Shown in pieces: positions 44,770-47,492 of a DNA stretch of 64,000 nucleotides. Both the position numbers and the translations under genes were made by a program. The stretch is from contig JAFGLJ010000029.1 of assembly GCA_016928075.1 (NCBI GenBank), positions 4,399 through 68,398 on the forward strand, given 5' to 3'. Every line of letters begins with the position of its first letter. Positions within the stretch are counted from its first letter, which is position 1. The notes beneath the pieces were generated by a model. It searched no databases and had not been told where the DNA came from. It saw only the letters and a program-made list of their open reading frames with translations. The stretch is from Bacteroidales bacterium (GTDB lineage: Bacteria > Bacteroidota > Bacteroidia > Bacteroidales > VadinHA17).

Positions 44770-45708
44770 ATGAATGGAAAATCACCTTTGAAGATATTCT
44801 CCTGCAGAGCATCACGATATATAGCTGAAAATATTGCCAAACACCTCGGGGTAAGACTGGGTGAAAGCAGTGTAACAGAGTTCAGTGATGGTGAATTTCA
44901 ACCACGTATTGATGAATCAGTGAGAGGCTGCTCCGTTTTTATCATTCAGTCTACCTTCCCTCCAGCTGAAAACCTGATGGAGCTGTTGCTGATGATAGAT
45001 GCAGCAAAAAGGGCATCTGCTTACAAGGTTATAGCTGTAATACCATATTTTGGACTGGCCCGCCAGGACAGGAAAGACAGGCCAAGGGTATCGATAGGGG
45101 CAAAAGTGGTAGCTGATCTTCTGGAATCAGTAGGTGTTGACAGGGTGATGACTCTTGATCTTCACGCTGACCAGATACAGGGATTCTTTAATGTCCCGGT
45201 GGATCACCTCTATGCTTCCTTCCTGTTTGCCAATTATATCAAGGAAATGAACCTGAGTAACATTACGATATCAGCACCCGACATGGGAGGTTCAAAAAGA
45301 GCTAATGCTTATTCGCGCCACCTGCAGTCAGAAATGGTGCTAAGCTATAAACTCAGGAAAAAACCAAATGTAATAGAGGAAATATCAATTATAGGAGAAG
45401 TTAAGGACAGAAACGTTATTATTATCGATGATATGGTTGATACAGCGGGGACCATGACACTGGCCGCCCAGGTAATAAAAGACAATGGGGCAAAAAGCAT
45501 TCATGCTTTTGCTACCCATCCCGTATTGTCGGGTCCCGCTTATGAAAGAATAGAAAATTCACCCATAGAAAAACTCGTCGTTACCGATTCAATACCAAAT
45601 GTAAGACCATCTCCCAAGATTGAAATACTTTCTGTTGCAAAGCTTTTTGCTGATACTATAGATGCCGTATACCATAATGAATCAATTAGCACTGGCTTTG
45701 TTTTTTAA
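44770..45708 (+). CDS. prs: Ribose-phosphate pyrophosphokinase
   Basis: FSDGE, ARQDRK, DLHADQIQGFF, DDMVDTAGT. Confidence 0.96.
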   Translation: MNGKSPLKIFSCRASRYIAENIAKHLGVRLGESSVTEFSDGEFQPRIDESVRGCSVFIIQSTFPPAENLMELLLMIDAAKRASAYKVIAVIPYFGLARQDRKDRPRVSIGAKVVADLLESVGVDRVMTLDLHADQIQGFFNVPVDHLYASFLFANYIKEMNLSNITISAPDMGGSKRANAYSRHLQSEMVLSYKLRKKPNVIEEISIIGEVKDRNVIIIDDMVDTAGTMTLAAQVIKDNGAKSIHAFATHPVLSGPAYERIENSPIEKLVVTDSIPNVRPSPKIEILSVAKLFADTIDAVYHNESISTGFVF

Positions 45709-45720
45709 CTCAATTTATCC

Positions 45721-45728
45721 TATATTTG
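45721..45728 (+). promoter_or_regulatory. Bacteroidota -7 promoter element for rplY
   Basis: TATATTTG matches TAnnTTTG. Confidence 0.7.
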
Positions 45729-45755
45729 CAGGCCAAATTTTTAATTAAACAATTA

Positions 45756-45819
45756 TTGTCGAACGTGTGATGGGAGGTCATAGCAATATGATCTTGAGTA
45801 GCACAACAAAAGATGACAA
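45756..45819 (+). promoter_or_regulatory. Structured rplY leader mimicking 5S rRNA loop E
   Basis: GUGU-GAUGG-[9-bp stem, GCAA loop]-GAGUA-GCAC; outer UUGUC/GACAA pairing next to the AUG. Confidence 0.65.
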
Positions 45820-46494
45820 ATGAGAACTCTCGAAATTATTGCCGAGCAAAGAAAACAGACAGGTAAAAAAGAAACCAGAAAACTAAGGGATGAAGGAAAT
45901 GTGCCATGTGTAATGTATGGAGGTAAAGAGACATTACACTTTTATTCACATGAAAATAACTTTAAAGAACTGGTTTACACACCTAATGTATATGTCGTTA
46001 CCATTAACATGAATGGAAAGAAATATAAGGGTGTGCTCAAAGATATCCAGTTCCACCCTGTTACTGACAGTATATCCCATATAGATTTTATGGAGGTATC
46101 CGATGAAAAGCCTGTAACTGTGGTAGTGCCCGTTAACCTGACAGGAGAGTCAGTAGGTCTTAAAGCAGGAGGTAAATTGAGACTTAAGAGAAGAAGGCTG
46201 ACTGTCAGAGGCTATATGGATAAACTGCCGGATAAACTGGATATTGATATTACAGATCTTGACATAGGTCAGACACTTAAAGTGCATGAGCTCAACTATG
46301 AAGGTATCGAAATACTTGATCCACCCAGGGCTATGGTTGTAGCTATTATTTCATCCCGACTTGCATTGAAAGGGATGGAAATTTCTGAAGTAGTTGAAGA
46401 AGCAGCTGAAGGTGAAGCCGAAGGCGAAGAGGTAAAAGAAAGAGCTGAAACCGCTGAAGCAAAAGAAGCAGAGGAAGAAGCCGAAAACAACTAG
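45820..46494 (+). CDS. rplY: 50S ribosomal protein L25/Ctc
   Basis: VPCVMYGG, DIQFHPVTD..HIDF; acidic tail. Confidence 0.96.
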   Translation: MRTLEIIAEQRKQTGKKETRKLRDEGNVPCVMYGGKETLHFYSHENNFKELVYTPNVYVVTINMNGKKYKGVLKDIQFHPVTDSISHIDFMEVSDEKPVTVVVPVNLTGESVGLKAGGKLRLKRRRLTVRGYMDKLPDKLDIDITDLDIGQTLKVHELNYEGIEILDPPRAMVVAIISSRLALKGMEISEVVEEAAEGEAEGEEVKERAETAEAKEAEEEAENN

Positions 46495-46525: not shown

Positions 46526-47125
46526 TTGAAATATTTAATTGCAGGATTGGGTAATATTGGTGAGGAGTATATAAATACACGCCATAATATCGGATTTATT
46601 ATACTGGATGCCTGGGCCCGGGTATCCAATGTTGAATTCACTGACAGAAGGTATGGCTCAGTGGCTTCATTGAAACACAAAGGCCGCACATTTGTACTGC
46701 TTAAACCATCAACATTTGTCAACAGGAGCGGAAATGCAGTAAAATACTGGCTGAAAAAAGAAAAAATTCCTGAAGAAAACCTGCTTGTTCTTGTTGATGA
46801 CCTTTCGATTCCATTCGGGTCAATGCGTCTCAGAGCCAAAGGCGGAGATGCTGGGCATAATGGACTCGCACATATTAATATGATACTGGGACACGGCAAC
46901 TATGCCAGGCTAAGATTTGGAATAGGCGATGATTTCATGACCGGTGGACAGGTTAATTATGTACTGGGCAAACTAACAGAAGAAGAAGAGAAAATACTAA
47001 ACAAACGACTCGACCTTGCCCTTGAAATGATCAAGTCGTTCGGTACCTTAGGGGTTGAACTCACTATGACAAAATATAATAAAGAGGCAAAAGCGCTGGA
47101 TGATGGTGAAGAATACAGTTACTGA
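46526..47125 (+). CDS. pth: Peptidyl-tRNA hydrolase
   Basis: GLGNIG.EY..TRHNIGF, GHNGL, RLRFGIG; TTG start. Confidence 0.95.
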   Translation: MKYLIAGLGNIGEEYINTRHNIGFIILDAWARVSNVEFTDRRYGSVASLKHKGRTFVLLKPSTFVNRSGNAVKYWLKKEKIPEENLLVLVDDLSIPFGSMRLRAKGGDAGHNGLAHINMILGHGNYARLRFGIGDDFMTGGQVNYVLGKLTEEEEKILNKRLDLALEMIKSFGTLGVELTMTKYNKEAKALDDGEEYSY

Positions 47126-47492
47126 TCAGAGAATTGATAAATTCCTATGGTCGGTACGGATATATAAAACAAGAAGCATGGCTACTGAGGCTTGTAAAAA
47201 GGGAAGAGTAATAATAAACGATGTACCTGTAAAACCTGCCAGGTTTATAAACGAAGGCGAAATAATACAGGTAAAAAAAACACCGGTGCTATATACATAC
47301 ACGGTCAAAAAAATTCCACCGTCAAGAGTGTCGGCCAGAATGGTGAATGAATATATTGAGGACAATACCCCTGATGAAGAAAAATTAAAACTGGAAATGA
47401 AGAATAATACATATGACAGTTACAGGTATAAAGGTTCAGGGCGACCTACAAAAAAAGAAAGGCGAGACATCGACAAACTAATGGGGATATGA
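47100..47492 (+). CDS. hslR: S4-domain heat-shock protein Hsp15
   Basis: RIDKFLWSVRIYKTRS, GRPTKKERR. Confidence 0.92.
   Translation: MMVKNTVTDQRIDKFLWSVRIYKTRSMATEACKKGRVIINDVPVKPARFINEGEIIQVKKTPVLYTYTVKKIPPSRVSARMVNEYIEDNTPDEEKLKLEMKNNTYDSYRYKGSGRPTKKERRDIDKLMGI

Follow-up and report, generated by a model that had tools for sequence, protein, structure and literature searches.

The window analysed here, a stretch of 64,000 nucleotides of Bacteroidales DNA, contains the gene prs (44770-45708, + strand) and, after a spacer of 111 nt, the gene rplY (45820-46494, +), which encodes a two-domain ribosomal protein bL25 of the CTC type with 224 amino acids (Pfam Ribosomal_L25p, 1.3e-23; Ribosomal_TL5_C, 7.8e-21). 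The solved chains nearest to the rplY product are those of bL25 in the ribosome structures 9i5t and 7jil. The C-terminus of the protein is a long acidic tail rich in Glu and Ala (approximately residues 186-224, encoded at 46375-46491) that lies outside both Pfam domains. rplY is followed by pth, the gene for peptidyl-tRNA hydrolase (46526-47125, +; Pfam Pept_tRNA_hydro, 8.5e-56), the start codon of which is apparently a TTG at 46526, 31 nt past the rplY stop, the product beginning with MKYLIAGLGN. The next gene encodes an S4-domain RNA-binding protein that is Hsp15/HslR-like by its domain only (47100-47492, +; Pfam S4, 1.3e-09). It begins 26 nt within the 3' end of pth, and the two reading frames overlap at 47100-47125. 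Since a terminator scan revealed no terminator-like site on the + strand between rplY and pth, both genes are probably transcribed as one unit and would hence both stand under the leader described below; the S4-domain gene is possibly the third member of this unit. Among related loci that carry the same leader, pth is located 3' of rplY on the same strand in all 45 that offer sufficient downstream sequence. In 34 of these 45, which repeat the gene order rplY-pth-S4 domain, the S4-domain gene is also found further 3' on that strand; some of the other loci end too early to tell.

The spacer between prs and rplY harbors a hairpin at 45765-45804 that ends 15 nt 5' of the rplY start codon, an AUG at 45820. 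Its basal helix consists of the 5' arm GUGU (45765-45768), which occupies the position of helix V in 5S rRNA, and the 3' arm GCAC (45801-45804; family consensus RCAC, with a conserved A next to it). This helix is followed by an internal loop similar to loop E of 5S rRNA, with GAUGG as the 5' strand (45769-45773; family consensus RAUGG) and GAGUA as the 3' strand (45796-45800; family consensus NAGUA). A variable stem-loop (45774-45795) takes the place of 5S helix IV and loop D and comprises nine base pairs, two of them G-U (45774-45782 with 45787-45795), and a GCAA loop at 45783-45786. Between hairpin and AUG lies an A-rich spacer of 15 nt (45805-45819), the translation initiation region, in which a Shine-Dalgarno (SD) sequence is absent. 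The minimum-free-energy fold of 45735-45835 gives the same structure and additionally pairs UUGUC (45757-45761) weakly with GACAA (45815-45819). An earlier interpretation of this DNA, the sequence-only reading, had named both arms of the basal helix, both loop strands, the 9-bp stem, the GCAA loop, the UUGUC/GACAA pairing and the AUG, and all of these are present in the sequence where it had placed them. The spacer also contains an out-of-frame AUG at 45813-45815 (GAUGACAAAUG), 7 nt 5' of the rplY start. Some leaders from the same genus share it and others (L002, L003) do not, and it is probably not functional.

Further upstream, the sequence TATATTTG (45721-45728, +) matches TAnnTTTG, the consensus of the Bacteroidetes -7 promoter box. 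Its presence implies a dedicated rplY transcript, which would start near 45735. A scan for sigma-70 promoters yielded nothing relevant, the sigma-70 consensus being inapplicable to Bacteroidetes.

By itself, this single sequence is not beyond chance. The z-score of the single-sequence fold is -1.59, equally good folds arise in 12 of 200 shuffled sequences, and the bare pattern GATGG-N10-40-GAGTA occurs five times in the window as compared to an expectation of 2.6. The significance of the hairpin rests on its conservation. L25 genes were found in 28 of 31 related genomes, and their upstream regions were read. The arrangement GUGY-RAUGG-variable stem-NAGUA-RCAC is present in 21 of 27 such regions, that is in every genome of the same genus and in six other families; another six families among the 27 regions lack it. 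A covariance model (R1) was built from 19 distinct copies (alignment A1). In the window's own genome it has one match with 65.7 bits and none other at E<=10, and in a sample of 151 Bacteroidales genomes it matches 69, each exactly once. The latter number is a lower bound, because R1 missed at least one long-stem copy (G280, with an insert of 69 nt) that was seen by eye and by a second model (R2, from 81 sequences). R2 itself matches 63 of the 151 genomes as compared to 69 for R1 and adds two weak new matches. Overall, the hairpin is present in about half of the Bacteroidales families sampled.

Outside of the Bacteroidales, R1 matches none of 147 genomes in a sample of the class and none of 146 in a sample of the phylum. 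The L25 gene was present in 151 of 151 genomes of the class sample (a tally that includes G260, on which no claim rests). Among 59 regions upstream of rplY that were read in 56 non-Bacteroidales families, there was one clear variant (L104) and one doubtful look-alike (L141). The variant, from another order of the class (G176:C19:6085-6335, minus strand), precedes rplY and reads GUU-GAUGG-stem-GAGUA-AAC; loop and first G-U pair are the same and the basal helix is GUU/AAC. A clear copy is absent from three other genomes of the same family (L139-L141). The sequence-only reading had attributed the element to Bacteroidota, which is too wide, as the hairpin was found in Bacteroidales only, apart from this one variant in one other order. 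Since 82 of the 151 sampled Bacteroidales genomes gave no R1 match and the other orders searched are likewise without one, any regulation exerted by the hairpin must be dispensable. Among named public records, R1 at E<=0.01 finds the hairpin in 47 of 80 Bacteroidales-type rplY loci, with every match on the gene strand and just 5' of the start codon. The named relatives with such loci are Bacteroidales metagenome-assembled genomes, with labels including Rikenellaceae, Marinilabiliales, Prolixibacteraceae and one Candidatus Bacteroides; the record labelled Candidatus Bacteroides avicola carries the hairpin.

The link to rplY is without exception in the aligned set. Sixty-seven of the 69 matches in the order entered the locus set (the match in G111, located at a contig edge, was left out) and, together with the first set, yielded 81 searched loci and 81 aligned matches (alignment A2), all of which directly precede an L25 homologue in the same orientation. 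Addition of the named loci and removal of duplicates resulted in 125 unique leaders. For 124 of these, L25 is detected downstream by tblastn, the exception, L158, being an rplY upstream stretch with only 30 nt of the gene.

In A2, 95.1% of the cells form standard pairs, and in the upper stem both partners have changed in eight of the nine pairs. Double-change cells in this stem number 160, versus 46 +/- 6.5 when columns are shuffled and 8-34 when the partners are slid by one to three columns, and the covariation score is 0.425 versus 0.03-0.13 for slid partners. As these counts come from a model-fitted alignment, an alignment-free test was added, in which uninterrupted pairs were counted inward between the anchors RAUGR and NRGUARC. 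It gave a median of eight uninterrupted pairs as opposed to 0.74 in shuffled sequences for 124 of the 125 leaders (one failed the anchor pattern), with segments of 13-69 nt from anchor to anchor and 48 distinct 6-nt arms. The terminal loop is not conserved, GCAA being particular to this genome. The comparison of Bacteroidales rplY leaders that the sequence-only reading had suggested thus bears out its expectation: the loop is near-invariant, the stem covaries and all 81 aligned copies precede rplY. That the hairpin is a genuine conserved RNA motif is, in our view, virtually certain.

The letters that do not vary are concentrated in the internal loop and the basal helix. On the 5' strand of the loop (A2 columns 9-13), the first position is a purine (G in 63 leaders, A in 18), the following A, U and G are found in 81 of 81 leaders each and the last G in 79. 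On the 3' strand (columns 108-112), a variable position (G 60, A 12, U 9) precedes A (80/81), G, U and A (81/81 each). The resulting loop pairs are G-A (63) or A-A (18), then A-U (81), U-G (81) and G-A (80/81), and the first pair of the upper stem is G-U in 70 of the 81 leaders. The basal helix is formed by G-C (81/81), U-A (80/81, with one compensated C-G) and G-C (81/81), followed by a more variable closing pair (U-G 40, U-A 33, C-A 6, C-G 2), and column 118, just after its 3' arm, is A in 75 of 81.

On the ribosome, bL25 occupies loop E and helix IV of 5S rRNA, as seen in the E. coli complex 1DFU and for the homologues TL5 and CTC. Loop E consists of seven non-Watson-Crick pairs centred on G75-A101 according to one study (PMC1976436), and its strands in E. 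coli are GAUGGUA and GAGAGUA (1DFU; PMC1920249). 5S rRNA was found neither in the window's own genome, the assembly of which is 75.7% complete, nor in four of the five relatives first tried; the comparison therefore used G013 and four other genomes. In the 5S rRNA of the same genus the region reads CC-GAUGGUA-C opposite G-AAGAGUA-GG, and three other Bacteroidales have GAUGGUA and GAGAGUA just as E. coli. Letter for letter, the leader loop equals pairs 72/104 to 76/100 of loop E, which are the five nearest to helix V. The ten letters GAUGG opposite GAGUA, the strand polarity, the flanking helices and a terminal loop at the helix IV end are all shared with 5S rRNA. On the other hand, pairs 77/99 and 78/98 on the helix IV side, which in 5S rRNA are non-canonical U-A and A-G or A-A pairs, are absent from the leader and replaced by the standard pairs G-U and A-U (A-U/G-C in the family). 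The statement in the sequence-only reading that the loop matches exactly is therefore overstated, since five of seven pairs are copied. The full bacterial motif of seven consecutive pairs is not found, only the five helix V-side positions being present; the loop E sub-motif of G-A, A-U and U-G followed by G-A occurs with isosteric substitutions only. It may also be noted that R1 finds no match in 5S rRNA itself at E<=1.

From the identity of the letters, the leader pairs would be expected to adopt loop E geometry. The purine at the position of residue 72, G or A against an invariant A in the leaders, repeats the alternation between G-A and A-A that the same-genus 5S rRNA shows at its mirror position. 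Two further differences concern the surroundings of the loop. The stem of the leader is of no fixed length, the two loop strands lying 13-69 nt apart, unlike in 5S rRNA. Furthermore, the basal helix GUGY/RCAC bears no resemblance to 5S helix V, which reads CC/GG, and the nearly invariant GUG/CAC must therefore be constrained by something other than mimicry. Two of the genomes for which 5S rRNA was retrieved (G133, L241; G176, L243) have the variant loop E GAUGAUA/GAAAGUA, in which A-A replaces G-G at 76/100. Co-variation of the leader loop with the 5S loop was considered and is not seen, as the leaders of both genomes keep GAUGG/GAGUA. In an NMR study, L25 is said to recognise loop E through its minor groove, chiefly on one strand, and in the NMR and crystal work a helix (tip) of the protein reportedly contacts the major groove at the junction of loop E and helix IV, where the two pairs replaced in the leader are located. 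If these contacts apply here, the five retained pairs would represent the minor-groove module and the conserved G-U pair might stand in for the junction.

The position of the hairpin relative to the start codon is conserved as well. Measured from the final C of RCAC, the spacer up to the AUG is 15 nt long in the median and 13-18 nt long in 98 of 124 leaders. Adenine is frequent at -12 (84%), -11 (81%), -6 (62%) and -3 (63%), and the hairpin ends at about -16. According to a study on Bacteroidetes, most genes of this phylum, rplY included, lack a Shine-Dalgarno sequence, and little structure together with A at -3, -6, -12 and -13 promotes initiation (PMC7797042). Of the unique leaders, 124 include 60 nt or more of sequence upstream of the hairpin, and 117 of these have a TAnnTTTG box no farther than 90 nt upstream; its distance from the hairpin is 17-41 nt in 116 of 124 and 83 nt in one. 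With the box so close, the hairpin would lie not far from the 5' terminus of an mRNA dedicated to rplY. Loci that lack the hairpin (L018-L023, most of L099-L157) usually have rplY 3' of prs, with a short intervening spacer devoid of a TAnnTTTG box. The hairpin leader thus seems to go together with a promoter of its own for rplY.

We consider it likely that the hairpin serves as a translational operator by which L25 regulates its own synthesis and which mimics 5S rRNA. The rplY mRNA would be transcribed from its own promoter, with a start about 30 nt 5' of the hairpin. The hairpin would then offer a copy of the five helix V-side pairs of loop E (R-A, A-U, U-G, G-A and G-N), flanked by the basal helix on one side and the variable stem on the other, with the elements in the same 5'-to-3' succession as helix V, loop E, helix IV and loop D of 5S rRNA. 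Whenever more bL25 is made than free 5S rRNA can take up, the N-terminal domain of the protein could bind this mimic, the hairpin and 5S rRNA competing for bL25. Because the hairpin ends approximately 15 nt before the AUG and beside the A-rich initiation determinants, the bound protein would block or trap the 30S subunit, and the result would be lowered translation of rplY and probably also of the co-transcribed pth. In this scheme the rplY product is the presumed ligand and rplY the presumed regulated gene. As expected for a ribosomal-protein leader in general, the element is a covariation-supported structure in the 5' untranslated region of a ribosomal-protein gene, and its likeness to the rRNA site of that protein is partial, extending over five of the seven loop E pairs.

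Leaders of ribosomal-protein genes that mimic rRNA are known, for example the operators of L1, L20, S8 and S15, and the hairpin is an element of the same kind; to our knowledge, no other described leader mimics 5S rRNA. Rfam 15 gave no match at gathering thresholds in the whole 64-kb window, tRNA families included. Within 45650-45900 at E<=10 there is only a chance match of 15 nt to porB on the opposite strand. This agrees with the supposition that no Rfam family would cover the hairpin. Full-text searches on autoregulation of rplY/L25, on Bacteroidetes leaders and on loop E, in a collection with few subscription journals, turned up no account of such an element.

In E. coli, bL25, which binds loop E of 5S rRNA, represses its own translation (Aseev et al., 2015; PMC4408793). 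The sequence-only reading knew of such autoregulation only from Gammaproteobacteria, and it is indeed documented for E. coli and close relatives only. The enterobacterial rplY leader, which was found again by Eckert and Weinberg (2020; PMC7247131), resembles that of the Bacteroidales insofar as a hairpin in the 5' untranslated region precedes a weak or absent Shine-Dalgarno sequence and autogenous translational repression by L25 is proposed in both cases. However, the enterobacterial hairpin HII 'does not resemble' loop E, relies on an SD-like element GAGA(G) and is found only in species with a short one-domain L25 (PMC4408793). The Bacteroidales leader, in contrast, stands before a long two-domain L25, contains a literal partial copy of loop E, lacks GAGAG and belongs to a lineage that does not use Shine-Dalgarno sequences. 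Accordingly, when compared by the description of HII, the leader in the window differs from the enterobacterial type in its two-domain L25 and in the absence of GAGAG from 45805-45819. The two leaders are separate families, set apart by description, that follow the same presumed logic; as they are unrelated in sequence and structure, an independent origin is indicated. Counting against the operator, purified E. coli L25 caused no band-shift of its own mRNA in vitro, though this is a different RNA from the one considered here (PMC4408793). In the Bacteroidia, further leaders of ribosomal-protein genes have been put forward: Table 1 of Eckert and Weinberg, with 20 candidates, contains L13 and S4 leaders from this class and none for L25 of Bacteroidetes (PMC7247131). 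These candidates are also lineage-restricted structures in the 5' untranslated regions of ribosomal-protein genes with presumed binding of the own protein, but for their two S4 hairpins of Bacteroidia/Flavobacteria the authors report no likeness to rRNA, unlike for the L25 hairpin.

Other explanations have to be weighed against an L25 operator. That the conserved letters represent an operator for a transcription factor at the DNA level, or that a single hairpin resembles loop E by chance, is scarcely credible. The five occurrences of the bare loop pattern in the window against 2.6 expected and the fold z-score of just -1.59 would agree with this idea, but the conserved blocks lie 13-69 nt apart and their pairing is kept by compensatory changes, which fits an RNA and not a DNA site of fixed geometry, and each genome has one match, always on the sense strand of rplY. 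Action on transcription, with the L25-bound or the free hairpin leading to premature termination, pausing or attenuation, appears very improbable to us. The hairpin would indeed be transcribed early, some 10-35 nt after the presumed start, and some ribosomal-protein leaders of other phyla act by attenuation. Yet the tract 3' of the hairpin is rich in A instead of U, the terminator scan is without a site on the + strand, a conserved alternative pairing is absent, and the distance to the AUG is constrained in a way that a terminator would not need.

The third explanation accepts a conserved RNA element of the rplY-pth mRNA that does not sense L25. It might be a stem-loop for 5' stabilisation or processing, or the site of another protein such as the S4-domain protein or an assembly factor, the loop E-type loop being a generic module. 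Structure and placement of the hairpin are established while its ligand is one that we infer, and besides rplY the unit includes pth in all 45 loci and the gene for the S4-domain RNA-binding protein in 34 of them. Mimicry of 5S rRNA moreover does not account for the invariant GUG/CAC helix, and just five of the seven loop E pairs are present. We nevertheless regard this explanation as unlikely. A stabiliser has no need for ten invariant letters that match the 5S rRNA site of the very protein encoded by the next gene; 11 of the 45 retrieved loci contain no S4-domain gene, whereas rplY follows the hairpin in 81 of 81; and the constant separation of hairpin and AUG, about 15 nt, suggests control of initiation.

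Returning to regulation by L25, a more comprehensive reading of the sequence comparisons is one towards which we lean, if only slightly. Among operators of ribosomal-protein genes, the hairpin would be the first to mimic 5S rRNA, independent of the enterobacterial L25 operator and at home in a lineage without Shine-Dalgarno sequences. Loop E would be trimmed in it to a minimal bL25 site of five non-canonical pairs and the G-U pair. bL25 would gauge free 5S rRNA in this manner and set the output of rplY-pth and possibly of the S4-domain gene, thereby tying central-protuberance assembly to functions in ribosome rescue.

The hairpin adds to the leaders of ribosomal-protein genes, and its distinguishing point is the clean mimicry of 5S rRNA. 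Documented autoregulation by bL25 concerns an operator without 5S likeness for which binding in vitro could not be demonstrated (PMC4408793), and the Bacteroidales hairpin would be a much clearer case, as it is a short, literal copy of part of the L25 site and readily testable. Should the proposed function hold true, a regulator of the ribosomal-protein type would be added to a phylum with unusual translation initiation, and the part of loop E that bL25 needs would be defined. For annotation, a covariance model is at hand for a family missing from Rfam.

A last point concerns the outer pairing. The sequence-only reading had described pairing of UUGUC with GACAA immediately before the AUG. The pairing as such stands for the window, is weak and particular to this genus and family, and is kept in leaders of the same genus, where it does not covary and is mismatched in L002. 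Its generality does not stand: an outer helix between flank and start region was considered as a family feature and rejected, since only 13 of 124 leaders have an outer pairing that surpasses 95% of shuffled sequences, where about six are expected, and the mean energy is -3.6 as compared to -3.1 kcal/mol in shuffles. Some lineages, for example L017, L033 and L066, possess a longer extension of the basal helix. Within the genus of the window, UUGUC/GACAA could add to the occlusion of the start region.
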